The notes under the pieces are model-generated. The model did no database searches, was not told the DNA's origin, and saw only the letters and a program-made list of their open reading frames with translations. Made by a program: the position numbers and the translations under genes. 39,201 bases of DNA, taken from the NCBI GenBank assembly GCA_029932015.1, contig JAOZQW010000001.1, forward strand, positions 1 to 39,201. Reading direction: 5' to 3'. This document shows, piece by piece, positions 1 to 19,189 of this stretch (positions within the stretch are counted from its first letter, which is position 1; each line of letters opens with the position of its first letter). Source of the stretch: Candidatus Fermentibacteraceae bacterium (GTDB lineage Bacteria; Fermentibacterota; Fermentibacteria; Fermentibacterales; JCC-6).

Positions 1-373
1 CTGGGTTTCTGAGGATGTATCTTACGGCCGCATATGTGTGCGCTTCATCCATGGCAGCGGAATAGTAGCGACCCTGGACCATTCTACCTTTTATATTATG
101 AATACTATTATAGCTACTTGTGTACCCCCAGAATGCCCTTCCCATCGCCTGAGATAGGCCATTCTCATCTGCAGGGACGGCAACCAGATGTACATGGTTC
201 GGCATAAGGCACCAGGCCTGTATTCTGATATTGAACTGTTGCATCCTTGCCGCAAGCATGCGGAGAAAGCGTATATGGTCATCTATACCTTCAAACAGAC
301 GTATCCCTCTCACGCCTCTCTGTGTGACGTGATGCGGGATGCCTGGAACAACGATCCTTATTCTTCTTGCCAT
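1..373 (-). CDS. IS200/IS605-type Y1 (HUH) transposase, REP-associated tyrosine transposase (RAYT)-like; N-terminal 124 codons only, C-terminus runs off the left window edge
   Basis: Absent from the supplied ORF track because it is open at the edge. Manual minus-strand translation from ATG 373-371 gives MARRIRIVVPGIPHHVTQRGVRGIRLFEGIDDHIRFLRMLAARMQQFNIRIQAWCLMPNHVHLVAVPADENGLSQAMGRAFWGYTSSYNSIHNIKGRMVQGRYYSAAMDEAHTYAAVRYILRNP. It has the HUH motif (NHVHLV) and the RYIxxNP tyrosine motif typical of COG1943/PF01797 transposases. Confidence 0.8.
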   Translation of the reverse strand, partial: MARRIRIVVPGIPHHVTQRGVRGIRLFEGIDDHIRFLRMLAARMQQFNIRIQAWCLMPNHVHLVAVPADENGLSQAMGRAFWGYTSSYNSIHNIKGRMVQGRYYSAAMDEAHTYAAVRYILRNP

Positions 374-434: not shown

Positions 435-459
435 AAATTGGTGGGTGGCACCATTAAAT
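435..459. repeat. REP-like palindromic motif, copy 1 (AAATTGGTGGGTGGCACCATTAAAT)
   Basis: The 17-nt core TGGTGGGTGGCACCATT is identical to 19104-19120. It has hairpin potential (TGGTG / CACCA around a GGTGG loop). It lies 61 nt upstream of the RAYT start and 8 nt past the terminator hairpin. Confidence 0.6.
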
Positions 460-467
460 AAGGAGGA

Positions 468-492
468 AGCCCCCCGGCAGGGCCGGGGGGCT
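468..492 (-). terminator. Rho-independent-type terminator hairpin after the lipoprotein gene
   Basis: Perfect 11-bp GC-rich stem AGCCCCCCGGC-agg-GCCGGGGGGCT. On the minus strand it is followed by the T-rich TCCTCCTTATTTAAT. A second small hairpin (516-532) spans the stop codon. Confidence 0.65.
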
Positions 493-530: not shown

Positions 531-1568
531 CTAGCTGTTCAGCATGTTCTCGATGACGACCATGAGGTCGGTCACGAAAGTTGCATCTTCTGGATCAAGA
601 GATCCACCATAGCCCAGGCTTGTGCAAAGTGACCATGCGAACCTGAAGGCCTGATCGGAGAATCCGATGGCCGCAGCTGTTCCCATGATCTGCACATTGT
701 CGATAGACTCCAGACCTGCGTATCTCTTGCCAAGACCGAACTGGTAGTTCGTGTTCAAGGATTCGAGACCACGGGCTGCAGCGGTGCCAAGAAGCCTGTC
801 ACCGTTGTCCCCGCGGATGTCCTGGAGCATGACGATACCCACGAGGGCATCGTAAGTGAACTGTGTTTCGCTACCTGATGCAGCGAACGTCCGATAAGCG
901 TAGCTTATCTGGTTGTCCACGTTAATCCAGGTGTCATAGAACTCACCCTGGACCTCAATGTTTGACCTTGGCACTGTCAGGTAGACCCAGTCACCAACGA
1001 TGCTGTCTACATCGATAGAGGCTACGGAGAACCCGTTCGCGACATCGAACATCGAAATGGCATCAGTCCTCGAGAAGCGATAAGGGATTGGAGTCGAGCC
1101 TACGATCGCGTAGATCTCGTCACCAACCCACTGGGCTCCCGAGTCTGCCGTCATCGCCAGGATAGGATCCAGTACCGCCGGTGGAAGATCGGTGTGGAGG
1201 CACTGGAAGACTGTCCACATGGTATCCTGCGTCAGAGTCTCCGATACTTCGAGCATCGGGAAGGTGCCAGCGTCATGCTGGATGGCCATGTAGAAGTAGT
1301 TGTCGGCTATACGCCAGTAATCCTCTCTGAAGAGGGCTGACCAGCCTGCACCCACATAGGCTTCTATTCCGCTCACATCGAGGTCGATGGCGTCCTTGAA
1401 GTACTCGAGCGCCTGCTCGTAATCTGCAGCTGCATATGCATCCCATCCCAGCTGAAGAAATCCGTTGACGCCATACGGGTCAGGGATGTCAGTGGGATCG
1501 TTTGCGCATCCGCTGAGGAGTACAAGGGAGCCAAGAATCGCGACGATTGCTGCGCTGATTAGTTTCAT
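531..1568 (-). CDS. Lipoprotein with TPR-like N-terminal segment, function unknown
   Basis: Signal peptide plus lipobox (LLSGC). TPR-like stretch ADYEQALEYFKDAIDLD. GGGAGGAGGGAG SD directly upstream of the ATG at 1568. Confidence 0.7.
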   Translation of the reverse strand: MKLISAAIVAILGSLVLLSGCANDPTDIPDPYGVNGFLQLGWDAYAAADYEQALEYFKDAIDLDVSGIEAYVGAGWSALFREDYWRIADNYFYMAIQHDAGTFPMLEVSETLTQDTMWTVFQCLHTDLPPAVLDPILAMTADSGAQWVGDEIYAIVGSTPIPYRFSRTDAISMFDVANGFSVASIDVDSIVGDWVYLTVPRSNIEVQGEFYDTWINVDNQISYAYRTFAASGSETQFTYDALVGIVMLQDIRGDNGDRLLGTAAARGLESLNTNYQFGLGKRYAGLESIDNVQIMGTAAAIGFSDQAFRFAWSLCTSLGYGGSLDPEDATFVTDLMVVIENMLNS

Positions 1569-1581
1569 TTCTCCCTCCTCC

Positions 1582-4017
1582 CTACTCTACTCGGAGCATC
1601 TTCTGAGTGACGGTCTGTCCTGCGGCCTGCAGCCTGCAGAAGTAGACGCCGGCTCCAACGGGATGTCCCGTGGAATCCATGCCGTCCCAGACCAGTGTGT
1701 GCTCTGCCGCCTGCATTTCAGTGTCGGAGAGCACTCTGACTATTCTTCCGCTCATATCGAAGACGGTTACGCTGACCCTGCCACTCACTGGCAGTGCGAA
1801 GCTAATAGCCGCCGAAGCACTGAACGGATTGGGATAGGTTCCGCTGAAACGGAAGTTCGCAGGTATCTCAGGGGAGGCAATGCCGGGGCCATCACCATAA
1901 ACGTAGATTCCTCCGTCATTGACGGATGCGAACATCCTGCTTCCCTGGAACCAGCTGTCCTGTCTGTCCCAGCCGTCAGAAGTGTAGCGGTAAACCGCGC
2001 CCTCAGAGGTAGCTGCAGGGAAGGAGAGCGTACCCGTTACATCCGGCATCGATATCGGGCCGGCGACAACACCGGTCATCTGACCCTCTACCGTCTCGAG
2101 GGATGCTGATGTCTCAATGGCGAGTCCGAGCATATCGACCTCGCACATGCTAACCATCGCACCCGGGGCAAGAGACCCACCGGGAATATCCAGCTGGATC
2201 TCATTGATCTCGAGTTCCGCACCATTGGCGGATGCCCAGGCTACGGAAGCTGAGATGCTGTTGCTGGCCGAGAGGCCTGTGCTGTCGTATCCAGCAACGG
2301 AAAGGGTATAGGCGCCATCATCCCAGGCACTGAACCTTGTGCTCCAGAGGGTTCCGTAGAATGAGGACATGTCGAAGGTGCCTGTGCTGTCCTCGTGAGC
2401 AGCGGTGAAGATTGGACCGTACCAGTCAAATCCCTCAGGGACGGCTTCGTAGAGCGTCGTGTAGAGAGTTATGTACTGGTCATTGATGTTGTTCTGGTGT
2501 GCACTGAGGAGTACATCCGGCACGTTGGTGTCCTGAGACAGAACATACCTTGCATCAGAAATGCCGCCCTCAATGTTGTTGGTTACCACCAGGTAGGCTT
2601 CATCAGCCTGGAGCTCAAAGGAGCCGTTATAGACATCGTTCAGCTCTACAGATTCGATCGAGTGGATCTCCTCTGCAGTAGTGTCTATTGAAACAACCCA
2701 GGCATCCCAGGCGGAGTTGATGATCGAACCTGATCCACCGCCATCGGAGAACATACCATTGAAGTACATGGTGGGAGTGGCGGAGTAGCCACTATTGAAG
2801 GCGCAGTACTGTATAGCCCAGATCGGAGCTTCCAGACCGGAACCCTCGGGGGCTATCCATATTTCATCAAGCGGGTAGCTGGCGAACGTGTGAGCGAACG
2901 CAGCTCCTGCACCGATGTGTCCGAACTGGTAATCACTGCCTGCAAGGAACTCGTATGTGTACTTGCCACCTTCCATACCATCGCGGAAGGCGCTTACGAG
3001 GTTGCAGATGATCCAGTCATTGTAGATAGGAACAACGTTTGTTTCTATCGCAAGACTATCGGCTACTGATGGATCAATCGCATGTGCGATGTTCAGCATG
3101 CCGGTAGTATCGGAGAGAGCGATATCACCGATGATGTCTTCGCCCTCACGCTGCATGAGGTACATGAACCACAGGAACTGCTGCCCCCTCGAACCGGCCC
3201 AGTTGCCCTTCGCGGGACTTGCGAGGGCAGTTGTCAGATCGATGTAGGGTGAGAGCCGGAACTGGCCCAGTATATAGTAGTGACCCATGTTGCCCGGGTC
3301 GGTCTGAGTGAAACCATAACTGAGGTACTGAGCAATGGCTCCAAGACCTCTGACGATCCACTCTTCCTCTGTTTGCATGCGGCTGAGTCGTGAAAGGATC
3401 GCAAGTCCATTGGGGACGTAGATCCTTCTCATCGCCTTGGCCTTACTCAGCGTAGAACCTACAGTAGCATACGTATGCAGGTTCACATAGAAGATGTCGT
3501 GACCATTGAACTCACCGTTCAGGTCCTGAGGGTCGACATAAACCATGTTGTTTCTCGGTCCCTGCGAAGATGGACCAGAGTTGTACTTGGTAGGGATGGT
3601 CGCAAGGACGACCCATATCTTCGGATCGCCATCGGTGTCCACGGGAGTACCCATGGTTCCGGTGACCGTCCCCCAGACATCGACGCCTCCACCCTCAAAT
3701 TCAGAGGTTAGAGTGTCGAGCTCGCCCTGTGTGAAGGTAACCCCCCAGCAGAGCGAATCGGTGAAAACCGTTCCTCCCTTTTTATCGCACGATACAGTGT
3801 CCTGTACAAGCCAGTAAGCATGCTCGGTCACAGCGCGGCAGGTGAACTGATGTGTCGCAGGCTCTTTCGGGAACTCCTCCAGGTTAGGAACCAGCAGGTT
3901 GATCGTATCCCCGACGTTCATGTCTGCACTTGCTATGCCGACTCCGAGAACTGGCAACAGGAGCGCTGTCAGGATGGTCAAGAGACCAGCCTTATGCGAT
4001 CCCGCGAAGAATACCAT
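1582..4017 (-). CDS. Large secreted protein with C-terminal T9SS/FlgD-Ig-like sorting domain, catalytic domain unrecognised
   Basis: C-terminus YPNPFSASAAISFALPVSGRVSVTVFDMSGRIVRVL...GVYFCRLQAAGQTVTQKMLRVE. I moved the start to ATG 4017 (MVFFAGSHKAGLLTILTALLLPVLGVGIASA signal peptide), which is preceded by GGAGGTTAAAT. The ORF-track start at 4128 has no signal peptide. No HExxH motif seen. Confidence 0.8.
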   Translation of the reverse strand: MVFFAGSHKAGLLTILTALLLPVLGVGIASADMNVGDTINLLVPNLEEFPKEPATHQFTCRAVTEHAYWLVQDTVSCDKKGGTVFTDSLCWGVTFTQGELDTLTSEFEGGGVDVWGTVTGTMGTPVDTDGDPKIWVVLATIPTKYNSGPSSQGPRNNMVYVDPQDLNGEFNGHDIFYVNLHTYATVGSTLSKAKAMRRIYVPNGLAILSRLSRMQTEEEWIVRGLGAIAQYLSYGFTQTDPGNMGHYYILGQFRLSPYIDLTTALASPAKGNWAGSRGQQFLWFMYLMQREGEDIIGDIALSDTTGMLNIAHAIDPSVADSLAIETNVVPIYNDWIICNLVSAFRDGMEGGKYTYEFLAGSDYQFGHIGAGAAFAHTFASYPLDEIWIAPEGSGLEAPIWAIQYCAFNSGYSATPTMYFNGMFSDGGGSGSIINSAWDAWVVSIDTTAEEIHSIESVELNDVYNGSFELQADEAYLVVTNNIEGGISDARYVLSQDTNVPDVLLSAHQNNINDQYITLYTTLYEAVPEGFDWYGPIFTAAHEDSTGTFDMSSFYGTLWSTRFSAWDDGAYTLSVAGYDSTGLSASNSISASVAWASANGAELEINEIQLDIPGGSLAPGAMVSMCEVDMLGLAIETSASLETVEGQMTGVVAGPISMPDVTGTLSFPAATSEGAVYRYTSDGWDRQDSWFQGSRMFASVNDGGIYVYGDGPGIASPEIPANFRFSGTYPNPFSASAAISFALPVSGRVSVTVFDMSGRIVRVLSDTEMQAAEHTLVWDGMDSTGHPVGAGVYFCRLQAAGQTVTQKMLRVE

Positions 4018-4124
4018 ATTTAACCTCCAATTTTGCAGCGGCTCTGTAACCGCATCAACGAAAACTTCAGCCTGCTTTGAAGTTGCTCTCTGACTGTTTG
4101 CAGGCATGTTAACCCTTTCGCCTC

Positions 4125-5468
4125 TCATTCCTGAAAGGAGTCAACCCCTCCGTAACCGGATGCACCGGTTACCGGAGCAAGCATGTCCTCCCAATTGGAA
4201 TAGCTGCTCTCCCCCTCTACGGTGGAGAATATCTGCTCATAAGAACCCGTTCCCGTTCTGTCGGCGAACACGAATCTATCGTTTCCGCTCTCATAGTAGG
4301 ACCAGATCTCATAAGGTATCTGGTCGATGGTGAACGGGACCGCTTCGATGTCATCAGGAGCGCCGTATATCACGTACACCCGTCCCCGATCGGTTTCCCA
4401 GCCCTCTTTAAAGGAACCGGAATATCTTGCGCTCTCCATACATCGCTGCTCGAAGGCCTGTCTGTCAGCGGTTCTGTCCTGCCAGTAGGCTGTGTAGAAC
4501 CGGACCTTCGCGGCATCGTCGAGATCCTCGTACAGGTCCATCTCGGCATCGGAAAGGATGAGCGTGAAGTGCTCTGGATAAGCGATCATCGAAACCTCAC
4601 CAGCGTAGAGTGAATCCCCTTGACTGGCTACAGTCTCGATGGCCCTTCCGACCATAAGCAGCTTGTCGACCTCAAGAGTATCATCCTGAATGACCATTCC
4701 CAGTACCATTCTATGCAGCCCTGAACCACGGACAACCTGAAGGTCCAGGCTGTCGATCAAAGCTATGACATCAGCCCCTTCCGGGACATCAACTGTCTTC
4801 CATGGTCTTGCGAAAATGGTCTCTCCGGACGAATTCTCAAGTCGACTCCGCAGCTTAACTGTCTGTCCTCCGACATCATAGACTTCCGCATAATAGTAGA
4901 GTGTGTGTTCTGCGGGAAGCATGTAACCCCCGTTTGCTGCCGGGTAGACCAGAAGCCCACCCTTCAGCAGGGGATTCGCTGAACTCTCAGGGGCCGGGAC
5001 AAGAGCCCTGGCCAGTTCGAGTTCACTGAGATGTCCGATTGCTGTTACCGAAAGAGGTCTGGAAACAGTTCCCTGTCGTCCGTTACCTCCATCGGTGACA
5101 ACGACATCGAGAATATACTCGCCAGACACTACCGGGATGGCAGTGCTGTTAACAACAGACCTTTCTTCCATCCATTCGACTTCTGAGAACCACTGGCTGA
5201 CGGCGACTGTATCGCCTGTCTCGGTTCTAAGTACAACCAGTGTTTCGAATCCGGCAATGGAGTCAGAATCCATCGAGAACTGGTCCACCAGCATCTGCTC
5301 GTAGACCTCTATGACGAGTGTATCGCTGTGATAGTAGTCGAAAAGCGCAGTATCGATTCCGAAATGAATTTCACCCTGGCTCATCGAGGCAAGGGAACCC
5401 GCTCCCACTACGGAGACAAGCATCAGAGAGACCAGGAAGAACATTGCTCTAGAGCTTCTCCCAGTCAC
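4125..5468 (-). CDS. GWxTD domain-containing protein
   Basis: C-terminal FKEGWETDRGRVYVIYGAPDDIE...PYEIWSYY...FVFADRTGTGSYEQI matches the GWxTD domain signature (TIGR04514-type). GTG start at 5468 is preceded by GGGAGGAGG. N-terminal signal peptide. Confidence 0.85.
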   Translation of the reverse strand: MTGRSSRAMFFLVSLMLVSVVGAGSLASMSQGEIHFGIDTALFDYYHSDTLVIEVYEQMLVDQFSMDSDSIAGFETLVVLRTETGDTVAVSQWFSEVEWMEERSVVNSTAIPVVSGEYILDVVVTDGGNGRQGTVSRPLSVTAIGHLSELELARALVPAPESSANPLLKGGLLVYPAANGGYMLPAEHTLYYYAEVYDVGGQTVKLRSRLENSSGETIFARPWKTVDVPEGADVIALIDSLDLQVVRGSGLHRMVLGMVIQDDTLEVDKLLMVGRAIETVASQGDSLYAGEVSMIAYPEHFTLILSDAEMDLYEDLDDAAKVRFYTAYWQDRTADRQAFEQRCMESARYSGSFKEGWETDRGRVYVIYGAPDDIEAVPFTIDQIPYEIWSYYESGNDRFVFADRTGTGSYEQIFSTVEGESSYSNWEDMLAPVTGASGYGGVDSFQE

Positions 5469-6591
5469 TTCGCACCTCCTCCCAGTCGGTCACGAGATCG
5501 AAAGCCCCAACTGCATAGTGATCGATAAAGACCACTTCGAGCGGAGGAGAGAAGTAGATCCATGTGATCGAGGGCAGCGTGGAAAGCTCCAGAGGCATAT
5601 CCTCGATCATATCTGGGGGTCCGAGAAGAGCGTAGACTCTGCCCTGATCCGATATTATTCCAAGTGAAGAGTGAACCGAGAAATGCTCCTCGATGTAGTC
5701 CAGTCTCTCCAGATACTCCTCGAGGTACTCGTTCCTTACAGTCCCGGGAGTGGGATCCCTCTGTGCCCAGAATTCCGCCATGACAGCGACTCTGGATGAG
5801 GGACCTTCCGCGTCCTCAAGAGCAGATATCTCTGCTGAGGATGCAATGGGTCTGACCAGGCTCCTCGTGAGCTCCGGGTCATCACCCCATATGTCCCAGG
5901 CCTGCATGATTGCGAGTTCCTCCCTTGCGGCGGAGACTATCTCCTCACCCTTCAGAAGAACGGCAAGCAGATCGTACTCACCTCCATCGAGTCCGGTAAG
6001 GCCGACATCGGCCCGGCACCGGAACCTGCCCTGTGAAAACTCTATACCCATCCATCCTTCGCGCTGGATAACCCCTGCATGATCCCGAAGCATCCATGCG
6101 GCGCTTACGGTATCCTGCTGGAGTTCAGCTTCCGGCGGATAGACGCTCCAGAAGACCTCGGTGGAGCCGAGAGCCCTCTGATACGTCCCATCCGTGAGCT
6201 GCAGAGAGCCCGATGACCAACTGACGCTGTCAATGCGAGGAACACTGATGTCCTCCTCCCATGTGAACTGCCTGCGTGTCTCGAGATCCCCCGCCAGAAT
6301 GGTGAGGACATGCTCTCCAGGGGGAACTGATGAAATAGTGAAAGTCTCCACCAGAGGAAGATCGTCCCTCCCGACTGCTCCGCTGTTCCTTTCGGTCATC
6401 ATACCGTCTATCGTGGCTGCAACCTCCCATGAGGCGGTCTCCACCCCATCATCCCTGACGAAGACAAGATCATCCGAATCAAGGATAACGGTCAGGTTCA
6501 CCGAGCCGTGAGCCTGGCCTCTGGCCGGCTCAACTTCCCAGGTGACCTGGAATCCGGTAAGCACCGTGAGCAGCATTGCCAAGAGCGTCAT
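5449..6591 (-). CDS. GWxTD-domain paralog with degenerate GWxTD motif
   Basis: FWAQRDPTPGTVRNEYLEEYLERLDYIEEHF...GIISDQGRVYALLGPPDMIE: same domain layout, but GWxTD is replaced by IISDQ. Overlaps the downstream GWxTD gene by 20 nt. SD GGAAGGAA. Confidence 0.75.
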   Translation of the reverse strand: MTLLAMLLTVLTGFQVTWEVEPARGQAHGSVNLTVILDSDDLVFVRDDGVETASWEVAATIDGMMTERNSGAVGRDDLPLVETFTISSVPPGEHVLTILAGDLETRRQFTWEEDISVPRIDSVSWSSGSLQLTDGTYQRALGSTEVFWSVYPPEAELQQDTVSAAWMLRDHAGVIQREGWMGIEFSQGRFRCRADVGLTGLDGGEYDLLAVLLKGEEIVSAAREELAIMQAWDIWGDDPELTRSLVRPIASSAEISALEDAEGPSSRVAVMAEFWAQRDPTPGTVRNEYLEEYLERLDYIEEHFSVHSSLGIISDQGRVYALLGPPDMIEDMPLELSTLPSITWIYFSPPLEVVFIDHYAVGAFDLVTDWEEVRSDWEKL

Positions 6592-6606
6592 TCATTCCTT
6601 CCGACC

Positions 6607-6627
6607 GGGGCGGGTACAACCCGCCCC
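6607..6627 (-). other. Intercistronic GC hairpin between the PorV-like and GWxTD genes
   Basis: GGGGCGGG-tacaa-CCCGCCCC, 8-bp perfect stem. No U-tract on the minus strand. Followed immediately by the SD of the next gene. Confidence 0.5.
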
Positions 6628-6642
6628 TTCAGTAAGACTCAG

Positions 6643-7626
6643 CTAAAACGCAAACCCCAGGCTGGCTCTGTGAACCATGTCCAGCCTGCTCCAGTCCGCA
6701 TAGGCGTAGTCAAGGGTCAGCGTCTTACCGCCGATCGGGATACGGAATCCCGCTCCTGCGGTCAGACCCTCTTCGTCTGTGTTGATTCTGTAGCCGCCGC
6801 GAAGGGCGAACATGTTGTTGTACCAGTATTCTGTGCCGATGCCGAGCTGCTCGACGTTGTCACTAGGATGAATACCATCGACCTCTACTGTAAGGAAGTG
6901 AGGTCCCCTGTTGATAACATCCATAGCCATGCCGAGCTTGAAGGTCATAGGCATAGAGTACGACTCGTAGGCCATCAGCGAGTCCTGCCCGCTGTTGTAA
7001 GTGGTGAACTCACCATCGGGGGTGAGCTCGCCGCCGAAGTGCTGGATGGCCATGCCGATGCGCAGGGTTTTGAAGCCGGTATCGTAGAGAGTACCCATGT
7101 CAACGGCTATCCCGCCGGCGGAGACATCGTCCCACTGCTCTCTGACGTACTTGATCGTCAGACCAGCGCTGAACCTGTCCGTTAGCATCCTGGAAAACGT
7201 AAGTCCTGCAACCATGTCGGTGCAGTTGAATGTTTCCCCGGTACCTTCGGGCTGCTCAACCGTGGTGACGTCCATATCCCCGGACTGGAGCATGGCAAAC
7301 GAAACTGCGAATGTTCCAATTCCCTGGAACTCGCTGCTCACGACCGCGCCCCCGTAGAGGACATCCGCAAACCACTGTGTCCCGGTGAACTGCACCTGGG
7401 TGCCGGGCACCCTTACGAGACACGCAGGATTCCAGAACACCGCGCTGGGATCATCAGCGGAGGCAACAAATGCGCCTCCCATAGCGATACCACGCGTGCC
7501 CAGTCCCAGTTTAAGGAACTGCGCTCCGGAGGTTCCGACCTTAGCAAAGGAACTAGCCTCGACTGTCGTCGGAAACAGCAGGAAGGCGGCGACCGCTGCG
7601 GTCAGGATTACACCTGTAAGCTTCAT
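6643..7626 (-). CDS. PorV/PorQ-family outer-membrane beta-barrel protein
   Basis: N-terminal GTRGIAMGGAFVASADDPSAVFWNPACL motif and a C-terminal aromatic residue (LGFAF). Start moved to ATG 7626 (MKLTGVILTAAVAAFLL signal peptide) behind AAGGGAGGAG. Confidence 0.65.
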   Translation of the reverse strand: MKLTGVILTAAVAAFLLFPTTVEASSFAKVGTSGAQFLKLGLGTRGIAMGGAFVASADDPSAVFWNPACLVRVPGTQVQFTGTQWFADVLYGGAVVSSEFQGIGTFAVSFAMLQSGDMDVTTVEQPEGTGETFNCTDMVAGLTFSRMLTDRFSAGLTIKYVREQWDDVSAGGIAVDMGTLYDTGFKTLRIGMAIQHFGGELTPDGEFTTYNSGQDSLMAYESYSMPMTFKLGMAMDVINRGPHFLTVEVDGIHPSDNVEQLGIGTEYWYNNMFALRGGYRINTDEEGLTAGAGFRIPIGGKTLTLDYAYADWSRLDMVHRASLGFAF

Positions 7627-7639
7627 GGTCACTCCTCCC

Positions 7640-9871
7640 TTATCTAATGACGGCAAACTTGCCGATTATGTAGTCATCATTGGTCTCAACACGATAGATG
7701 TAGAGCCCAGATGTGACTTCCTGATCGTTCCTGCTGATCAGGTCCCAGAACTCCGTGCCTTCTTCGCCGCCCCAGCTACGGTGTTCAAGGGTGATGACAT
7801 GGTCACCGGCAAGTGTGTAGATGTGAATGTTGCACATGGCTGGCAGATGTGTGAAGGCGATCTTGTCGAAGTATGTCTGCTCCCATGCGGCCGAACCCCT
7901 GTATGGGTTCGGGACTACCCGTACGTTCTCGGTCCAGTTCGCGTCGGTACCCATGACCGGAGTGACCGGAAGGGGAGTACCCTCGAGTGTCTGTTTGTAG
8001 TTGGACCTGGTACTCTCTACATCGGTCTCTTCGTCGTACGAACAGACCACATAGTAGTAGGGGAAACCGTTGGTGACTGTCTCGTCGGTGTAGTTGGTTG
8101 TACCAACCGGTCGAGTAGCAACGAGTTCCCAGCCAGCGGGTTCGAAGGTCGAGCGATAGATGTTGTACCCACCGAGGTCTGTGTAGCTCTCAGCATTGGA
8201 ACCCCACTCGAGGTGGACCTGTCCATTGCCGGCTTCGTAGAAGAGAATGGGCGATGGCGGAAGCTTGGGAACACCCCAACCACCGTCGCGGTAGTACGCA
8301 TCCAGCATCCCGTCGGCAACCTCTCTGGCACCTTCGAGACCCATGCCGATAAGATAGCCACCGACCATGTGCAGGCTGTCACCCTCCTGGAGGTTGACCG
8401 GACCCGCGCTGATCAGGAAGCGATAGTCGAACACCGGGTAATCCAGTGCAAGCGGGTTGTCATGAACGATAGGGAAAGGTCCCGGATTGCCCGGAGCTAT
8501 AGCCTCCGGCGCATGAGGATGCCCTACCCAGTCAGTCATGTATGCAGGTCCGCTGTACTGTCCGCTGGCATCCGGGTTCTGACCCCACATGAAGTTGTAC
8601 TGCTCGAGGTCAGTACCAGGATCGCTCTCCCAGTTCCACCAGCCATGCGACTGAGGAATGGGGTAGTCGAAGACATCGATGGGACGCTCAATTGTTCCAT
8701 TAGCCTTTTTGATCCAGAAATCAAGCAGACGCCAGCTAATGAAGCCATTGGCAGGTGGTACGAGTTCAGGCTCACCTGAATCGTCCGTACCTGAGGACGG
8801 ATTGTCCCCGTCCCAGATGTAGCTCATGTTCCTCGGAACCACATGGTAAACCGTGTCGCCCACGGTGTGCTCCCAGTGATTCTCAGGCATGCCATCAGAG
8901 AACAAAGCAAGACCGGACTCGTTAAGAGTCCAGACGGTATCTCCTCCGACAGTTCTGAAGAGGATGGTGAAATGGTCACTGACACCATTCCCATCGACAT
9001 CATTGTCTAGAATATCATCCGATCCGATGTAGTTGTAGTAGTACCAGATGTTCTCTGGATCATCTGATGCTCTCGTATTATCCGGGTTCTGCTGGTAGGT
9101 GTAGATGTCCTGGGCGCTGGCCAGAGTTCCGTCGTCAAAGACGTACTCGAAGGTTGCGTCAGGATCGTTGCACCAGATAGCATGGCCGTCGTAGTAGACC
9201 AGGTCATCGATGTGGCATTCAGACACGTCACCAGTTGCAGCATCGCAGTCAGCCTTCATCGACACCATGAAGGCGTCGAGCGGCTCACCGCTGCCGTGCT
9301 CGGGATGATGCGTCAGGATGAGGTCCTGGGCGATGAAGTCGTTGTAGCCCGGGGTGCCCCAGCCGTAGTTCTCATTGTAGATCCCGATACCGTATGGATC
9401 CGAGTTCTGGCCTGGATAGTTCCAGTCGTCGAAACCGTACTGGGTCTCTTCGAGAGCGGTGGGTCCGGGACTCAGCTTCTCAGCTGCGAATCCCTCGCTG
9501 GCCCACAATTCCCAGTTGCCGTAATCACTGCCGCTCATCCATTTTGCGACAGAGTCCGGATTAGGTGCTGTTACCGCACCGTACTGGCACGTCCAGAGAT
9601 CTCCTGTGAAGAGATAACTGCTGCCCTCACCGGCCGGCCACTCCATTGACGGGTAGTTCGCCCATGGATCGCCGTACATACCGATGTTCATGAGAGCGCT
9701 CCACATGTTGCTCAGGTTGTGGAGCATCCATACAGCCGGTGGCCGGGCATCGGTCGAGCCCTCCGGCATAGGTACCTCGCGCACCTCCCTGGCAAGGCCG
9801 GTGCCTGACAGTGCGAACACTGCCAGCACCGAGAGTACCAGGAACCCGCGAGTATAGCTGGAGTTCCTCAT
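7640..9871 (-). CDS. Large secreted protein with FN3-like domain and C-terminal T9SS-type sorting domain
   Basis: Signal peptide MRNSSYTRGFLVLSVLAVFALSGTGLA. FN3-like GQVHLEWGSNAESYTDLGGYNIYRS. C-terminus VRVVPNPYRGSAAWEQ...GLYIYRVETNDDYIIGKFAVIR. Start moved to ATG 9871, because the track start at 9889 is a TTG inside the GGAGG SD. Confidence 0.75.
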   Translation of the reverse strand: MRNSSYTRGFLVLSVLAVFALSGTGLAREVREVPMPEGSTDARPPAVWMLHNLSNMWSALMNIGMYGDPWANYPSMEWPAGEGSSYLFTGDLWTCQYGAVTAPNPDSVAKWMSGSDYGNWELWASEGFAAEKLSPGPTALEETQYGFDDWNYPGQNSDPYGIGIYNENYGWGTPGYNDFIAQDLILTHHPEHGSGEPLDAFMVSMKADCDAATGDVSECHIDDLVYYDGHAIWCNDPDATFEYVFDDGTLASAQDIYTYQQNPDNTRASDDPENIWYYYNYIGSDDILDNDVDGNGVSDHFTILFRTVGGDTVWTLNESGLALFSDGMPENHWEHTVGDTVYHVVPRNMSYIWDGDNPSSGTDDSGEPELVPPANGFISWRLLDFWIKKANGTIERPIDVFDYPIPQSHGWWNWESDPGTDLEQYNFMWGQNPDASGQYSGPAYMTDWVGHPHAPEAIAPGNPGPFPIVHDNPLALDYPVFDYRFLISAGPVNLQEGDSLHMVGGYLIGMGLEGAREVADGMLDAYYRDGGWGVPKLPPSPILFYEAGNGQVHLEWGSNAESYTDLGGYNIYRSTFEPAGWELVATRPVGTTNYTDETVTNGFPYYYVVCSYDEETDVESTRSNYKQTLEGTPLPVTPVMGTDANWTENVRVVPNPYRGSAAWEQTYFDKIAFTHLPAMCNIHIYTLAGDHVITLEHRSWGGEEGTEFWDLISRNDQEVTSGLYIYRVETNDDYIIGKFAVIR

Positions 9872-9988
9872 ACTTCCCTTTACCTCCAATTCCTAGATGA
9901 CTTCGTGGTTGCATCCCGAGTTCCATTATGGCTCTCGGTCCGCACATCCGCGATTCCGGTTATCTTCTCTTGCACTTTCATCATACGA

Positions 9989-10660
9989 TCAGTTTTCGAG
10001 ACTGAAGTTGTACGTGACGGTTGTCCATACACTCACTGGGATGCCGTTGTTCTGCGCGGGAGTCCACCTTGTGTTCCAGGCTGCCGACAGGGCCGCCTGA
10101 TCAAGTGCATTGACTCCGCTTGAATTGTAGAGCTGCACATCAACAACGCTTCCGCTAGAGTCGACGAACACCCATAGCACGACGCTGCCCTCTATCCCGG
10201 CCTGAAGGGCCATTGCCGGATAGTCGGGTCTTGGCTGATAGGTGCAGGTCGGAAATACCTCCGCCGGCATGAAACGCGGCGGTCCGGTGCCTTCCGACTC
10301 CTGCTCAGCAGCCTCGTCGCCCTGCTCGATCGTCGAAACCTCTTCGAGGCCTTCTGTCTCATCCTCGAGAGAGAGAGTCACATCGACGTCAAGTTCCTCA
10401 ACCTCCTGCTCGACTTCCTCCTCCTGCTCTTCCTGCTCCTCCTCGATCTCCTCTTCCTGCTCCTCGACGGTGTCATCGAAGGCGATGTCGGTTTCTACCG
10501 CCTCCATCTCGCTGTCCACCGTCCGCGTGGAGAGCCTACCAAGCTGGCTAGCCGGGATAAGCTCGAAGAAGATGATGAGTATCGCGAGGCCTATAACCAT
10601 GCCCCACTCGAAGTTGAGGGTGGAGTGCCTGTAATCGCCATTGCTGTCTTTGGACATCAT
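9989..10660 (-). CDS. tonB: Energy transducer TonB (C-terminal TonB domain, acidic linker)
   Basis: N-terminal TM segment. C-terminal YPAMALQAGIEGSVVLWVFVDSSGSVVDVQLYNSSGVNALDQAALSAAWNTRWTPA is a typical TonB_C domain. The linker is Glu-rich (EEQEEEIEEEQEEQEEEVEQEVEE) rather than Pro-rich. Confidence 0.8.
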   Translation of the reverse strand: MMSKDSNGDYRHSTLNFEWGMVIGLAILIIFFELIPASQLGRLSTRTVDSEMEAVETDIAFDDTVEEQEEEIEEEQEEQEEEVEQEVEELDVDVTLSLEDETEGLEEVSTIEQGDEAAEQESEGTGPPRFMPAEVFPTCTYQPRPDYPAMALQAGIEGSVVLWVFVDSSGSVVDVQLYNSSGVNALDQAALSAAWNTRWTPAQNNGIPVSVWTTVTYNFSLEN

Positions 10661-10668
10661 CCCCCCTC

Positions 10669-11130
10669 TCAGTAGAGTCCGAGTTCTTCAGCATTAAACT
10701 GAATACTGTATATCTCTTCAAACCTCATTGATCCGAAAAGATCGACCATTGCCTGCATCGGGACTCGCGAGTCGATGTTCAGCACAACAACGTCCAGACG
10801 CTTGTTCTGTTCGCGCCAGAACCTGTCGCTCAGAATGGACAGCTGCTCAGCGATCTGGGAGAGGGGCATATCGTAGTCCCCTATCCTTGCGACCAGCTCG
10901 CTGCTGTCATTGCCAGGCTCAACCTGCTTGACCCATACGGTGACCGTCAGGTACTGCTTGCCGAGCTCATTCATCACTTCGTGATGTGCCTGGGGGAAGC
11001 GGACCCGAAGGCCACCATCCTCCTTGAACAATGTAGTCGCCATGAAGAAAACCAGGAGCAGGAAAACGATGTCGGCCATCGTTCCCGTGAAGATATTTCC
11101 AGTAACCTTCATTCTTCTCTTGAATTTCAT
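10669..11130 (-). CDS. exbD: ExbD/TolR biopolymer transport protein
   Basis: 153 aa with N-terminal TM MADIVFLLLVFFMATTLF and typical ExbD length. ATGA overlap with the upstream gene. Confidence 0.8.
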   Translation of the reverse strand: MKFKRRMKVTGNIFTGTMADIVFLLLVFFMATTLFKEDGGLRVRFPQAHHEVMNELGKQYLTVTVWVKQVEPGNDSSELVARIGDYDMPLSQIAEQLSILSDRFWREQNKRLDVVVLNIDSRVPMQAMVDLFGSMRFEEIYSIQFNAEELGLY

Positions 11131-11879
11131 CAGGCATCACCTCCGAGTCTCTCCTGGATTGTGACTCCTGTCCTGCTCACGCCATTCAGGCGGAGAAGGT
11201 CAAGGGCAAATATCATGCCCTCATAATCACAATCCGGGAAGAACTTGAGGATCACGACCAGCTCGCTCTCTCGGACAACAGAGGCTATTTCGCCCTGCCG
11301 CACATCTGAGAGAACAAGTGTGTCACCGAAAGCGATCTCTCCGAAGATGGGATCCATCTCCAGCGGTATCCGGCTGCCCATGATGGTCCGCAGAATGCCG
11401 GGTCTCACCATGGGTACGAGATTTTCCGCACTAATCGCGGTTTCAAGTGAGCTGTACGTCCCGGAAGGAACGCCCTTAGCCACCTGGAGGTTGCTCAGAA
11501 GCCTGTCGAGCGATGCCGACATTGCTTCCACCCTCTGGGAGGCCAGCGTTCTTATTCCGTTATGCAGGCTCGTGTCCTGGAGGCTCACGTCCTCACCGGC
11601 TCTCGCCCTTTGCAGGGGGCCCTCGGGCGGCGCCTGATCGATCAGGGCCACATACTCGTGGGCTCCCCACTGCTTGATGGTCATGACGAGTCTGTTCGTC
11701 TCGTCGATGACCACTTCCTGGGTCTCCGAATCAGGCTTCTTTGGAAGCTTGAAAGAGATCCCTTTCTGCACCTCAAAAGTGGTCGTGACCAGGAAGAAGA
11801 TAAGCAGCAGGAACGCAATGTCGGACATTGAGGCATCGGGGATATCCCCGCTTGCTCTCGGTCTGTTACGTATCCGCAT
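11130..11879 (-). CDS. ExbD-like protein with ~100-aa internal insertion
   Basis: ExbD-type N-terminus SMSDIAFLLLIFFLVTTTF and C-terminal ExbD-like fold segment, but 249 aa long. AAGGAG SD. Confidence 0.7.
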   Translation of the reverse strand: MRIRNRPRASGDIPDASMSDIAFLLLIFFLVTTTFEVQKGISFKLPKKPDSETQEVVIDETNRLVMTIKQWGAHEYVALIDQAPPEGPLQRARAGEDVSLQDTSLHNGIRTLASQRVEAMSASLDRLLSNLQVAKGVPSGTYSSLETAISAENLVPMVRPGILRTIMGSRIPLEMDPIFGEIAFGDTLVLSDVRQGEIASVVRESELVVILKFFPDCDYEGMIFALDLLRLNGVSRTGVTIQERLGGDA

Positions 11880-11897
11880 CCGTGCTCCTTCTTACCA

Positions 11898-12737
11898 TTA
11901 CAGCTGCTTGAGGTGCTCCATGTCCGACAGCTTATCCACGAGGAAAATGCTGGCTTCTTCCATATCGATCACGAATCGTCCGATCTTGGCGATGAAGTAG
12001 TTATGGGCCATCTGGATCGGAATCGCGATTGTAAGACCAGTCGCAGTTGTGATGAGGGCTTCCTGGATACCACCGGCGACGAGGCTGGCCTCGACGTTCT
12101 TCGCAGCGGCAATCTCACCGAAAGCCTTGATCATTCCAGAAACCGTACCAAGGAATCCAAGCATCGGTGCGATGCTCGAGACCGAAGCAAGTACAACGAT
12201 ACCCTTCTCGAGGAAGGCCATTTCAATACCGCCTGCGCTCTCGACAGCCTTCTCGACGGCTTCAAGTCCCTTGTCGTGTCGGACAAGTCCGGCATGCATT
12301 ATCGATGCAACAGGTCCACTTGTCCTGGCGCAGAGATCCTCAGCGCCTTTGATATCGCCCTTACGGATGAAGCCACCGACCTTCTCGAGGAAGGAGTTGA
12401 CATCAATCCGGAGTTTGCCGTAGGTGATAAACCTCTCTACAGCAACAGCGATTCCGATAAGAAGCGAGAGAAGGAGCGGATACATGAAGGGTCCGCCTGC
12501 AAGGAAGAGGTCCTTGAGGTCCATGCTGGCGCTCTCCGCGCGCTCTACTTCCTCACCTACTGGAGCATCGGCCACGGGCTCCTGTACAACAGGTTCCTCG
12601 ATAACCGGCTCTTCAACTACAGGCTCCTCGATGACCTCGGTCACCTCTTCAATTGGAGCCTCTTCTGTTCCGGGTTCCTCTGGCTGTGCCCACGCTATGG
12701 CTGTGAGCACGAGGAACAGCAGCAGGAATTTACGCAT
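11898..12737 (-). CDS. exbB: MotA/TolQ/ExbB proton-channel protein with signal peptide and acidic repeat extension
   Basis: C-terminal SIAPMLGFLGTVSGMIKAF...GGIQEALITTATGLTIAIP is the MotA/ExbB signature. N-terminus has a signal peptide plus EEPV(V/I) repeats. Confidence 0.85.
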   Translation of the reverse strand: MRKFLLLFLVLTAIAWAQPEEPGTEEAPIEEVTEVIEEPVVEEPVIEEPVVQEPVADAPVGEEVERAESASMDLKDLFLAGGPFMYPLLLSLLIGIAVAVERFITYGKLRIDVNSFLEKVGGFIRKGDIKGAEDLCARTSGPVASIMHAGLVRHDKGLEAVEKAVESAGGIEMAFLEKGIVVLASVSSIAPMLGFLGTVSGMIKAFGEIAAAKNVEASLVAGGIQEALITTATGLTIAIPIQMAHNYFIAKIGRFVIDMEEASIFLVDKLSDMEHLKQL

Positions 12738-12773
12738 CTAGTTCTCTCCTTATGTCATTCCAGTCAAGTGCCA

Positions 12774-12797: not shown

Positions 12798-12818
12798 CGG
12801 ACAGTTGTTCTTCTCAGG

Positions 12819-15593: not shown

Positions 15594-16164
15594 CGCAGTA
15601 GCTCCCTTCCATTTCGCGACCTCCCAGTCGCGGTTGAAACAAGACCTCGACTCCGCGAAGAAGCATGCTGCACACCCCCTTCTACACTCCTCCAGGAGTC
15701 ATACAATTCGTTGCGTTGCAAAGTGTTAGAGAAATCTGAAACTGATTCTGAGAGTATACCTCCCCTGCTCGTATTTGTTGATTCGACTTGAGCATACGCC
15801 CCGTTGAAACCGGAGTCAAGACAACCAGATCCAGCTATTGAAAAGGGGGCATGGCAATCCCGCAGCAGCCATCTATATCGTGCTTCTTGTATAGGATTGC
15901 AGTGAGCTAAGTGAGCTTCGCATGGAGGTGCCCTTCCACCACCAAATTCGGTAGTGGATACGCTATCCCCATACTTTCCGGGAAGAGACGGCATTTCCGT
16001 CCTCCATCCTTCCTCCCGTATGTAAAACCAGAAGTAAGGCAGACAGTTCCCTAGAATTGTTCTCGGAATTGCCTTCAATGACTGCATCAAGTGCTTTCGA
16101 ATGAAGTAGTTGCAACAGGGAGAAGGGATTAGAGTGGCAGATCAGCACATTGCATCCTTCCCGA
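15594..16164 (-). promoter_or_regulatory. Long (570 nt) non-coding spacer / 5' leader between the two TBDR paralogs
   Basis: Only implausible ORFs. Mutually exclusive helices lie just upstream of the SD: 15615-15632 CGCGAC/GTCGCG versus 15628-15633 with 15653-15658. Direct repeat AGTGAGCT-A-AGTGAGCT at 15901-15917. Confidence 0.4.
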
Positions 16165-19011
16165 TCACCATTCGAGCCCGAGTCCGAAGGATATCGTTCG
16201 AGGTCTGCTGAAGGCGTACATGTTGTTCAGGGGGCCAGTGGGATCATGACCTGCCCCACCGCACTCATCCATTCCCATATCTGCATCGTACCACTCTACA
16301 TCGGCAATGAAGTCGACATTGTGACTGTTGAACAGGTTATCCACCTCGCACCAGGCATTCAGGGTCATGTCCCCGAGCCAGAAGGCTCTGCTTACTTTGA
16401 GGTCAGCTATCAACGTAGAGGGGTATCGCTCTCCGTTGATGACAGGCCGGGCGGTTCCCTGATTAGTCTGGCTGTAGGGGAATCCGCTGCCGTAGCGGCA
16501 TGACAGATGAGTATCGAGGCCCTCAAAAACGGGGACACCCGCTATCCGCAATCCCCTGCCTCTGGGCACCCTGTGGTTGAGTTCGATACTGACGGTATGC
16601 CGCTGGTCCCAGTCCAGATAGTGCTCACGGATCAGTGGTTCCCAACCCTCAGTTACCGTACGGTACCCCAGCAGAACGTTGGAGCTGCTTCCTTTTGCGA
16701 CTGAGTATGTGTAGCCGATGCTGCCGGAAAGGAAGGAATCAGCATACTTTCGGAGCAGGACATCGAACCCGGATGCATCTGCATAGTCGAGGTTGTCGTA
16801 TATGAAGAAGTCAGGCTCAGATCCACCGGATGAGTAAACCGGCCTTGTGTCAACAAGACCTGACATATCGCGGTAGAATGCAGTGATGTCGAAGTATGCA
16901 TCATTACCAAGCTCATGCCGCAGTCCCGCTTCATATGCGACCGTCACTTCGTGGGAAAGATCGGGATCACCAAGAACTGGTATCTCCCCGGGTTTGCTCG
17001 ACGGCTGTCCTCCGCCGTACATCAGATCGAGCCTTTGATGCCGACTGTAATGACAATACGAAACGTGCAATACACCCTGCTCACTCAGAATGTACGACAC
17101 TCCAAGTCTGGGGTTTAGCCTGAACTTGGGTGAACCGGTCAGAGAGTCAGCCAGGGTTGGTGGATAATCCGGCCCCGGATCGACCGGGCCGGATGGAGGG
17201 TCGATATCCTGATTCGGATCGAAGTAATCGAGCCGGGCGCCGATGTCCAGAACAACACCGTCCAGCCACATTCTGTCCCGCAGGTATAATGCCCCGGAGT
17301 TGGGAAATGCATGGTACCTGTTGAAATGTGCCGCACCTGCTGAGGGTACATCCACGCTGTAATGGAATACGTCAAAATACTTGAGCTCAATACCGGCCTT
17401 GAGCTGGTTCCTTCTGCTGATCATTGTAGTCAGATCGGTCCTGAGAGTTGATACAATACTCTCGGTCTCGCTCCAGGCATGCCGGCTGGTTCCAGCTCTA
17501 TAGAATCCCTCTTCATCCACTGAGCGCTGCGGATCGTAAGCCTGCCATTGCTCCTCTCCCCAGCCTTCCCCAAGCCACTCGGTATCGTACGGACCTTGGG
17601 GATCGTTCCGTATCCTGCGGTCGAAGGAGGTTCGATAGCTGTTGAGAGCAACATCGATATAAGTGACATCACTCAGTGTCTGCATGAAATTCAGCCCAAT
17701 GGCGGAATTCTCCCAGCTCCTGGTAGGAAGACCGTAGAGGATGTCCCGTCCCCAGGCCAGGGTGTCCCCATAGGCTGGCGAGAGGGAGTCGGTGTCGATG
17801 TAAGGCTCCTCGTACCTGCTCCAGTTCCAGAAGTCTCCGATACCGAACCAGCCTTCAGTCCTGTCCATTTTGAAATAGGTCAGACTGAACATTGTTCCAG
17901 AATAGGGTCTATATGTCAGCTTCACATTACCAGTGTACGAAGTGAGCCATTCATCGAAGCCGTAGCCGTACCTTCCATCCTCACCTCCCCCGGTCTGTCG
18001 GAATCCGCCTGACGCAAATACTCGAACATCACCGGGAATGTCTATGCCAATGGCCGGAAGGAGGTAATTCGCAATGGGCTCCGGTCCTCCAATGGAGACC
18101 TCGGCATTGAATCTGGCGTCCGAGAAGGGGCTCACATTGCTCCATCTCCAGCCGCTGTCAGGAGATGCTGGATCAAAGCCTCCCCAGTGAGAGTCGCTGG
18201 CAAGACCGAGGGCCTGCCAGTCATTTCCACCAATGTTTATCGAACCATGATATGAAGACCTGCCCTCTGGAGTAATGATATTGACTGCATCGGATTGAGC
18301 ACTACCGTACAATGTGTCAAATCCGTCACGGTGGAGCGAGATCCTGCTGATTGCGGACATCGGGATGTCGCTGCTGAAGAAACCGGTAGTCGGATCTGTA
18401 TGTTCAACACCATCGACTGTATATACAGCCTCCCCGGCTCTACTTCCCCGGAAATGGAGAGTGCTTCCAATTGCTGAAGCATCCCGCACACCCAGCCACT
18501 CAGTATATGGACTGTCGTGTCCGACCTCACCCCAGCGCTCACCGCAGTTGGTGACGCTCACCGTCCCTGCGATGAAGTCCTGAATACCGGCAACGGGCAG
18601 TGGGGTTATGTCTTCTGGACTCGAAACAATTACTGCATTGTCATTAATTAAAGTACTGCCTGAGACAACGATGCGAGTATCGCAGGCGACTTCCTCTTTG
18701 AGAAAGAAGTCAACTGACACAGTATCCCCCGCGAGTACATGTACAACAGGGGATGTTTCGGCTTCAAAACAGATCATAGCAGCCTGAAGTTCATATACGC
18801 CCTTGGGGAGGTTGATTATTATGTACTCACCATTGGCATCAGTCATTGCGCCGTACGAAGTCCCAATGACCATCACGGTAGCAGTGAACCGAGGTTCACC
18901 AGACTCATCCCATACATGCCCGACAATGGTGCCTGTATCGCCTGCGACTGCAATCGAGGTGGCCGACAGCAGAGTCATCAGTACGATTCCCGTTACGGCT
19001 CTGACACCCAT
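16165..19011 (-). CDS. TonB-dependent receptor with carboxypeptidase-regulatory-like domain (paralog 2)
   Basis: Collinear with paralog 1 over its whole length and ends GLGLEW. Preferred start is ATG 19011 (MGVRAVTGIVLMTLLSATSIAVA), 8 nt after GAAGGGA. ATG 19020 and TTG 19035 are alternatives. Confidence 0.85.
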   Translation of the reverse strand: MGVRAVTGIVLMTLLSATSIAVAGDTGTIVGHVWDESGEPRFTATVMVIGTSYGAMTDANGEYIIINLPKGVYELQAAMICFEAETSPVVHVLAGDTVSVDFFLKEEVACDTRIVVSGSTLINDNAVIVSSPEDITPLPVAGIQDFIAGTVSVTNCGERWGEVGHDSPYTEWLGVRDASAIGSTLHFRGSRAGEAVYTVDGVEHTDPTTGFFSSDIPMSAISRISLHRDGFDTLYGSAQSDAVNIITPEGRSSYHGSINIGGNDWQALGLASDSHWGGFDPASPDSGWRWSNVSPFSDARFNAEVSIGGPEPIANYLLPAIGIDIPGDVRVFASGGFRQTGGGEDGRYGYGFDEWLTSYTGNVKLTYRPYSGTMFSLTYFKMDRTEGWFGIGDFWNWSRYEEPYIDTDSLSPAYGDTLAWGRDILYGLPTRSWENSAIGLNFMQTLSDVTYIDVALNSYRTSFDRRIRNDPQGPYDTEWLGEGWGEEQWQAYDPQRSVDEEGFYRAGTSRHAWSETESIVSTLRTDLTTMISRRNQLKAGIELKYFDVFHYSVDVPSAGAAHFNRYHAFPNSGALYLRDRMWLDGVVLDIGARLDYFDPNQDIDPPSGPVDPGPDYPPTLADSLTGSPKFRLNPRLGVSYILSEQGVLHVSYCHYSRHQRLDLMYGGGQPSSKPGEIPVLGDPDLSHEVTVAYEAGLRHELGNDAYFDITAFYRDMSGLVDTRPVYSSGGSEPDFFIYDNLDYADASGFDVLLRKYADSFLSGSIGYTYSVAKGSSSNVLLGYRTVTEGWEPLIREHYLDWDQRHTVSIELNHRVPRGRGLRIAGVPVFEGLDTHLSCRYGSGFPYSQTNQGTARPVINGERYPSTLIADLKVSRAFWLGDMTLNAWCEVDNLFNSHNVDFIADVEWYDADMGMDECGGAGHDPTGPLNNMYAFSRPRTISFGLGLEW

Positions 19012-19058
19012 TTCAGCCATCCCTTCGGTCAGCAATTCAATTGATATAGATAATTGAG

Positions 19059-19086
19059 TATGTAGAGTGTACTACTTCGCAGTCAA
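19059..19086 (-). promoter_or_regulatory. Candidate sigma70-type promoter for the TBDR/Ton/T9SS-cargo block
   Basis: On the minus strand, TTGACT (19086-19081), a 16-nt spacer, then TACATA (19064-19059). It lies about 40-50 nt upstream of the TBDR-2 start. Confidence 0.3.
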
Positions 19087-19099
19087 CCGAAAAAAGGTG

Positions 19100-19124
19100 A
19101 AAATGGTGGGTGGCACCATTTAAT
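19100..19124. repeat. REP-like palindromic motif, copy 2 (AAAATGGTGGGTGGCACCATTTAAT)
   Basis: Same orientation and same 17-nt core as 439-455. AATGGTG-ggtgg-CACCATT forms a 7-bp stem. It sits between the upstream terminator and the candidate -35. Confidence 0.6.
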
Positions 19125-19160: not shown

Positions 19161-19189
19161 GGGGACATGCACCGCCGGTGCATGTCCCC
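19161..19189 (-). terminator. Terminator hairpin ending the 12-gene gcv-to-membrane-protein array
   Basis: GGGGACATGCACC-gcc-GGTGCATGTCCCC, 13-bp stem. On the minus strand it is followed by TATCCTTATCCTTT. It lies 24 nt after the stop codon that begins at 19214. Confidence 0.6.

Follow-up and report, generated by a model that had tools for sequence, protein, structure and literature searches.

The stretch of DNA analysed here (the window) is an entire contig of 39,201 nt, and matching DNA is present in hydrothermal-vent and marine-sediment metagenomes. Positions 531–19035 form a single minus-strand block in which Pfam searches identified two TonB-dependent receptors, ExbB, two ExbD proteins and TonB, along with T9SS-tailed proteins, a PorV-like barrel and GWxTD proteins. 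Such a gene content suggests a bacterium of the FCB group. The two receptor genes (956 and 924 aa) are tandem paralogs with 70–79% identity, and the 956-aa receptor corresponds to the listed open reading frame 16165–19035, which starts at TTG. The edge of the contig carries part of a gene for a HUH/Y1 tyrosine transposase (Table 1), truncated because the window is the whole contig and ends there. Two copies of a short repeat (units U and T) lie between genes at the two sides of the minus-strand block.

Table 1. Features in the window, dispersed repeat units of the same population, and repeats flanking orthologous Y1 genes.
Feature	Sequence	Position	Strand	Description
HUH/Y1 tyrosine transposase gene, TIRYT / subclass 2.1 type by sequence	Window	2..373	-	First 124 codons of 218 aa; the contig end cuts the gene
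Repeat unit U	Window	435..459 (core 439-455)	-	Upstream end-repeat of the Y1 gene; reads ATTTAATGGTGCCACCCACCAATTT in the gene's orientation
Terminator-like G+C-rich hairpin	Window	469..491	-	GCCCCCCGG-CAGGG-CCGGGGGGC; ends the upstream T9SS/TonB operon; read from the sequence
3.05-kb segment	Window	16052..19099	-	956-aa TonB-dependent receptor paralog and upstream region; absent in L142 (blastn)
Repeat unit T	Window	19100..19124 (core 19104-19120)	-	Dispersed solo copy; reads ATTAAATGGTGCCACCCACCATTTT in the same orientation
Terminator-like hairpin	Window	19161..19189	-	Inverted repeat I6; upstream 12-gene operon; kept in L142; outside the repeat
Solo unit	L124			Convergent gap
Doublet, 11-nt spacer	L125			Convergent gap
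Doublet, 9-nt spacer	L127			Convergent gap
Solo unit	L129			Starts right behind a stop codon
Tight doublet	13,053-nt X1 contig			12.4x
Y1 flanks	L130			Perfect doublets of AATTCGTACCACCCACCATATGAA on both sides
Y1 flanks	L131-133			Upstream AATAGTGCCACCCA...CACTATT; downstream inverted AAAAGTGCCACCCACCATT
Y1 flanks	L134-135			Upstream AACAGTGCCACCCACTATT; inverted partner downstream
Y1 flanks	L140			AATTCGTACCACTTACGAATT on both sides, inverted
Y1 flank	L139			AATGGGGACACAATA
Y1 flank	L141			GGGGACAGGATA

The same population yielded two longer contigs, L115 and L116, through an exact-protein look-up of an 848-aa neighbour, and from these we recovered the full Y1 gene. The gene codes for 218 aa (L115, 12358–13014), and its product matches the Pfam family PF01797 (Y1_Tnp) with an E value of 1.8e-7 for the part contained in the window and 6.8e-7 in another Pfam run. 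Y1_Tnp was the sole domain that Pfam reported in the protein, with no helix-turn-helix (HTH) or DnaA-like C-terminal domain. The only NCBIfam match of the full protein was to NF047646 (REP_Tyr_transpos), at 59.6 bits (E 3e-16) and under that model's cut-off of 80; the match to the transpos_IS200 model was insignificant (E 0.055). The catalytic motifs are intact (NHVH at residues 59–62 and YILRNP at residues 119–124, the latter with the class 2 signature Y---NP). The protein also carries a conserved Q-G-R block, a WSS motif and a tail that is basic. In an alignment with 22 homologs, it matches all of the invariant columns. Comparison with an 88% identical ortholog gave a dN/dS of 0.16 at a dS of 0.40, with all three flanking 17-mers unchanged. 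The gene is intact and under purifying selection. Each run contained only one contig context for the gene, and tblastn detected no second copy in any fetched locus of this organism. A phmmer search with the Y1 protein found no Y1 structure in the PDB.

The repeat was defined from its two copies in the window. As the preliminary description had reported, the two 25-mers share an identical 17-nt core, TGGTGGGTGGCACCATT, which is exact in both, on the same strand and intergenic (Table 1). The spacings to neighbouring features were also borne out: unit U lies 61 nt from the ATG at 373, and the G+C-rich hairpins are 9 and 36 nt away from the respective copies. The likeness between the two copies is limited to ~27–32 nt. 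There is no third match to the core with up to three mismatches within the 39,201-nt window, where shuffled sequences lead to an expectation of 0.12. The unit consists of a 7-bp stem (AATGGTG/CACCATT) and a 5-nt loop, which reads CCACC in the gene's orientation. Because this loop is asymmetric, the repeat unit has an orientation. The core had been called self-complementary, which is true of the 7-bp stem but not of the asymmetric loop, and copy 1 pairs over 5 bp only.

As a solo hairpin, the repeat is weak (-4 to -6.5 kcal/mol). Unit U forms a 5-bp hairpin with a DNA fold of -4.0 kcal/mol (z -3.0), and it is kept, with a perfect stem, at the locus of the 88% ortholog (L118). Unit T has an 8-bp stem and a DNA fold of -6.5 kcal/mol (z -4.0); it is unchanged across four runs and lies ~65 nt upstream of an ATG proposed at 19019. 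The hairpin at 469–491 is outside the repeat, as other copies of the repeat are without it. Some other identities for the motif were tried and rejected. A tRNA fragment, att site or known RNA was discarded because the searches returned no tRNAs and no Rfam match, and a sigma-54 promoter (TGGCAC) because no copy has TTGC at the right spacing and the genes are on the opposite strand. A literature search with the letters of the motif retrieved unrelated primers only.

In the longer contigs, the Y1 gene is bracketed by the motif, since two further exact copies follow the stop codon and one unit lies upstream. The exact cores in L115 are at 12276–12292 (+), 13029–13045 (+) and 13087–13103 (-). Unit U is 66 nt upstream of the gene when measured from the 17-nt core and 61 nt when measured from the 25-mer, and the exact cores past the stop form an inverted doublet 14–90 nt away that folds at -27.3 kcal/mol (z -6.8). 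L116 shows the same layout, as does the metagenome contig carrying the 88% ortholog (L118).

The same unit is dispersed in the population. From reads and contigs (~11–12x in run X1), we documented exact units, at least 12 in number, at no fewer than 8 loci between genes; both counts are lower bounds, since solo units escape the comparison with Logan contigs, which finds doublets only. A metagenome scan for AATGGTGCCACCCACCAWT returned only 13 loci, among them L124, L125, L127 and L129 on four contigs from a single metagenome. We assigned the units to one population because their loci share 100% identity and a similar depth in X1: the L124, L125, L127 and L129 loci were covered at 8.8–12x and the window region at 10.6–11.3x. 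The existence of these additional exact copies outside the window places the motif beyond chance; two exact 17-mers in 39 kb are by themselves only weakly significant. The motif is therefore not confined to the two loci from which it had been proposed, nor is it equally frequent inside coding sequences, as none of the documented units lies in one and all of them are intergenic.

The units occur as singles and as three tight inverted doublets (Table 1). Folding energies of the doublets range from -23 to -27 kcal/mol, with z values from -7 to -10. The units at L124, L125 and L127 are in gaps of 49–135 nt between convergent genes. No GTAG or CGTC tag stands beside any of the 12 units, whose flanks are A/T-rich and variable, in agreement with the preliminary description of a motif without a GTAG head. 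No degenerate copies (up to three mismatches) were detected in ~100 kb of these loci, which could instead mean that the motif is a sequence-specific site under selection. At position 2418 of L129, a 976-nt contig from run X3 matches L129 only from 2 nt before the core, its other part being unrelated sequence; this is a strain-level rearrangement or insertion abutting the unit. L124 also contains a 30-nt word (10160–10189) at the 3' end of a gene that in X1 is common to a third contig (18.9x) and breaks the assembly; this word has nothing to do with the repeat family.

Comparisons with two relatives provided additional information about the T site. Unit T is present at the orthologous site of L142, which is 93–94% identical to the window. 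The blastn alignment of this relative with the window runs at 93.9% identity up to position 19100 and picks up again at 16051, and one breakpoint of the segment missing from L142 (19099/19100) exactly abuts the edge of unit T. In the relative L137, unit T is missing and both flanking genes are kept; divergence between these genes is too great for an empty site to be delimited exactly. Most of the 570 nt separating the two receptor genes of the window (15594–16164), from ~16051 down, align with the long leader of the single receptor gene in L142 and partly with that in L137. The L142 breakpoint, the divergence at L129 in X3 and the unit-less L137 are hints of activity or recombination at the units rather than proof of transposition, and no event of transposition, excision or cleavage was seen.

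More distant homologs of the Y1 protein (P0142, P0143, P0144 and P0146, the last of them named 'Candidatus Fermentibacteraceae') have 47–55% identity and are encoded at the same chromosomal site. This site lies past the last gene of the T9SS block (345–355 aa) and is followed by a PD40/Tricorn-like gene, aroA and an RNase T gene. Conservation of the site at such identities indicates that the Y1 gene is single-copy and vertically inherited. One upstream (+) and one downstream (-) repeat accompany the gene in L131–L135, L139, L140 and L141, and the flanking boxes (Table 1) have GT[GA]CCAC as their common part. The box variants of the clade include GTGCCACCCACCA, GTACCACCCACCATATG and TTCGTACCACTTACGAA, and one variant has a compensatory change in the stem (from AATGGTG/CACCATT to AATAGTG/CACTATT). 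Across the clade, the flanking box changes together with the Y1 ortholog. The co-occurrence of repeat and transposase proposed in the preliminary description therefore extends to relatives, with the same bracket around the 88% ortholog in L118 and separate box variants at the distant syntenic orthologs.

Two observations concern individual homologs. The 256-aa gene calls for the Fermentibacteraceae Y1 ortholog in L134 (2544–3314) and L135 (4001–4771) extend over the repeat unit on the upstream side; translation probably begins instead at a later ATG, which yields ~219 aa, as in L131. A Planctomycetota Y1 homolog (L136, 43% identical) has five tandem TATCCCCTTAACTCC units before the gene (2565–2934) and scattered ATGTCCCC repeats after it (3601–4218). 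These represent a different type of end-repeat within the same protein family.

To which type of Y1 enzyme the protein belongs is suggested by end-to-end blastp alignments with the reference sequences of tyrosine transposases associated with terminal inverted repeats (TIRYTs; Additional file 5 of Di Nocera et al., 2013; PMC3733652). The best match was bbt5382 (42% over 220 aa, E 8e-52), followed by pca3049 (38%), gsu2396 (37%) and aba2776 (36%), and the C-terminal tail can also be aligned with those of gsu2396 and bbt5382. The E. coli RAYT (b228) aligned over 92 aa only (27%). We therefore classify the protein, from its sequence, as a TIRYT rather than a GTAG-reading enzyme of the E. coli type. 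The TIRYTs and their TIRtrons (PMC3733652) correspond to TnpA_Y1 subclass 2.1 (PMC6006769) and to RAYT group 1 (PMC5581495), and no GTAG head is expected for an enzyme of this type.

Repeats of this kind have precedents. In the surroundings of such genes, Di Nocera et al. (2013; PMC3733652) describe families of TIRs, some of them self-complementary and dimeric. Those associated with ORF1152 of S. maltophilia are portrayed there as partly self-complementary and dimer-forming members of a moderately small family, and a GGGGWSAS box as present in many, not all, TIRYT TIRs (PMC3733652). The repeat is therefore a REP-like family with a cognate tyrosine transposase, of a kind already described. The suggestion that it could be a new class of REP is not upheld, as the enzyme is of the TIRYT type and TIR-type families are already on record (PMC3733652).

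We also scanned genome contigs for the 17-mer. Among the matches listed, most were in coding sequences for LVGGTI, at least ~35 were in Pirellulaceae, and the window's own genome was absent. We examined ten Pirellulaceae loci (L028, L060, L066, L068, L080, L087, L088, L090, L102 and L107), and all ten carry a Y1 gene (~386 aa where complete) with the motifs SNH[LMI]H, FWEGRFK and YVDLNPVRA. These genes were found with the published TIRYT sequences as queries and were missed by tblastn with the window's Y1 protein, with which their product is barely alignable (E ~1e-3). The upstream side has one or two copies of the motif, at least one of them exact and mostly 69–138 nt away, followed by TTGAC. 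The downstream side has copies at five loci, where one or two inverted copies lie ~184–253 nt past the stop. Stieleria magnilauensis contains two copies of the Y1 gene that are 99.7% identical and 1.4 Mb apart.

In our view, the motif is likely to be a hairpin repeat whose cognate enzyme is the Y1 (HUH) tyrosine transposase encoded next to it, repeat and gene together forming a 'REPtron/TIRtron'. The bracketing of the gene, the dispersal of the units and the box variants at syntenic orthologs thus support the original proposal of a REP-like palindrome with an adjoining cognate Y1 transposase. The hairpin would form where the repeat is single-stranded, for example in the lagging-strand template, and would be bound there by the enzyme, which would read the asymmetric loop and the top of the stem (GTGCCAC). 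Cutting and rejoining beside the hairpin could then occasionally copy or move units or doublets, in trans, to new intergenic sites, while the Y1 gene itself would stay put. The part assigned to the enzyme in spreading the units draws on biochemical knowledge of IS608 TnpA and E. coli TnpA-REP. Some points speak against this reading: the solo hairpin is weak, the documented exact units amount to about a dozen, degenerate copies were absent from ~100 kb, and a survey met no REP-like sequences for this subclass (PMC6006769). The copy at 19100–19124 would be a dispersed unit of this sort that has come to sit between a terminator and the following operon. As a by-product, the doublets between convergent genes probably also serve as bidirectional terminators or RNA-stabilising hairpins.

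It is very unlikely, in our judgment, that the locus is instead an autonomous IS-like TIRtron in which the Y1 gene and its inverted ends move together, the solo units and doublets elsewhere being footprints or decayed ends rather than units mobilised in trans. [quoted passage not shown] However, the gene has a single location here, held down to 47–55% protein identity, with one contig context per run and no second copy by tblastn in the fetched loci of this organism. The spacers of the tight doublets (6–11 nt) also leave no room for a lost gene, and there are no gene remnants.

The exactness of all copies over 17 nt, with no degenerate ones seen in ~100 kb, is what would be expected of a site for a host factor or a structural signal under selection (an operator, a terminator or a nucleoid-protein site), the copies flanking the Y1 gene then reflecting autoregulation or coincidence. 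Units U and T do lie 60–85 nt upstream of gene starts, the Pirellulaceae unit is directly followed by a -35-like hexamer (TTGAC), the 17-mer is common to two barely related Y1 lineages, and the doublets between convergent genes could terminate transcription. Yet at three of the eight loci the neighbouring genes converge, a setting in which an operator would be pointless, and one unit is directly behind a stop codon. The number and spacing of the units vary (solos as well as doublets whose spacers measure 6, 11 and 41 nt), the hairpins have no consistent T-run behind them, the T-site copy is absent in L137 with both flanking genes kept, and box and Y1 ortholog vary together through the clade. 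We therefore regard a host-factor or structural site as very unlikely, too. The probability that the motif is a functionless 17-mer repeated by chance is practically negligible. By our estimate, the a priori expectation for an exact 17-mer pair in 39 kb is roughly 0.1, and many of the 17-mer matches listed from genome contigs code for LVGGTI; chance does not account for at least 12 copies that are exact and intergenic within one population, with three surrounding a single gene, or for units conserved in orthologs at a dS of 0.40.

Under the preferred reading of a cognate hairpin repeat, the locus can be compared with characterized systems. It resembles TIRYT systems in the motifs of the protein (NHVH, (F/V)Q-G-R, Y[IV]xxNP, WSS and a GRP.G...F tail), which fit the published motif table (PMC6006769), and in the inverted repeats that flank the gene ~45–85 nt from the coding sequence. 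The repeat is like the ORF1152 TIRs of S. maltophilia in being partly self-complementary, in pairing into dimers and in making up a moderately small family. Its documented exact copies number about a dozen, in agreement with the 16-mers flanking group 1 genes, which average 12 occurrences per replicon (Bertels et al., 2017; PMC5581495). The box of the window (GGTGCCAC) departs from the GGGGWSAS box given in the TIR descriptions of PMC3733652, fitting it at six of eight positions, whereas those of L139 (GGGGACAC) and L141 (GGGGACAG) match it exactly and in the same place. Additional differences are the lack of an HTH or DnaA-like C-terminal domain in Pfam searches of the protein, a gene that is syntenic and single-copy over deep divergence, and a host from an uncultured lineage of the FCB group that is probably Fermentibacteraceae-like. 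Furthermore, REP-like units are present here, whereas the survey of Quentin et al. (2018; PMC6006769) came up with none for subclass 2.1.

The system also shares several features with classical REP/REPIN-RAYT pairs, represented by E. coli TnpA-REP/YafM (subclass 2.2) and by group 3 of Pseudomonas. There, as here, the Y1 gene is single-copy, passed on vertically and accompanied on its flanks by extragenic palindromes of its own; solo units and REPIN-like inverted doublets are scattered between genes, often at convergent 3' ends; and the protein has the class 2 signature Y---NP. In contrast to those pairs, the units lack GTAG or CGTC and are short (19–25 nt), and the documented exact copies number about a dozen rather than hundreds, far below classical REP families. 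The protein differs as well, having 218 aa with a C-terminal tail and scoring below the NCBIfam equivalog cut-off. With the IS200/IS605 elements (TnpA_IS200, subclass 1.1), the locus has in common the HUH/Y1 fold family (PF01797), a family that recognises DNA hairpins near the ends of the element. It differs from them in having Y---NP rather than Y---Q, ends that are inverted rather than co-oriented, a single-copy and syntenic gene, and repeats that are spread without the gene.

The locus thus provides a clean example of a subclass 2.1 / group 1 TIRYT with a dispersed hairpin family and REPIN-like doublets in a subclass that one large survey had reported as REP-less. The example comes from an uncultured vent-sediment bacterium of a phylum-level lineage known solely via metagenomes. 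The combination of a fixed gene and a drifting box among the orthologs offers a natural series for learning which residues read which bases of the hairpin. Annotators should not take the 'transposase' gene by the end of the contig for evidence of a mobile island, nor treat the palindrome upstream of the TonB-receptor operon as an operator.

The recurrence of the 17-nt box AATGGTGCCACCCACCA in Pirellulaceae raises a more doubtful idea, namely that the box is a shared and exceptionally constrained end-signal of two barely related Y1 lineages in two phyla. The lineages are distinct, one having a 218-aa, single-copy and fixed gene (Fermentibacteraceae-like) and the other a 386-aa, multi-copy and IS-like gene (Pirellulaceae). 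We hold a shared end-signal to be unlikely. If true, it would mean that reading the hairpin falls to some conserved portion of the Y1 core or to a host factor, likewise conserved, at the replication fork or, alternatively, that the units cross phyla and recruit whichever Y1 enzyme is resident. It would also mean that the two structural breakpoints located exactly on unit edges are real cuts made by the enzyme. Four other matches to the 17-mer (L003, L031, L032 and L104) come from metagenome-assembled genomes that bear the labels Roseiflexaceae, Chloroflexi and Singulisphaera, and the ~75 nt surrounding the motif are almost the same in all four. This context is a conserved element or a cross-bin contaminant and, as far as seen, is separate from the Y1 systems.
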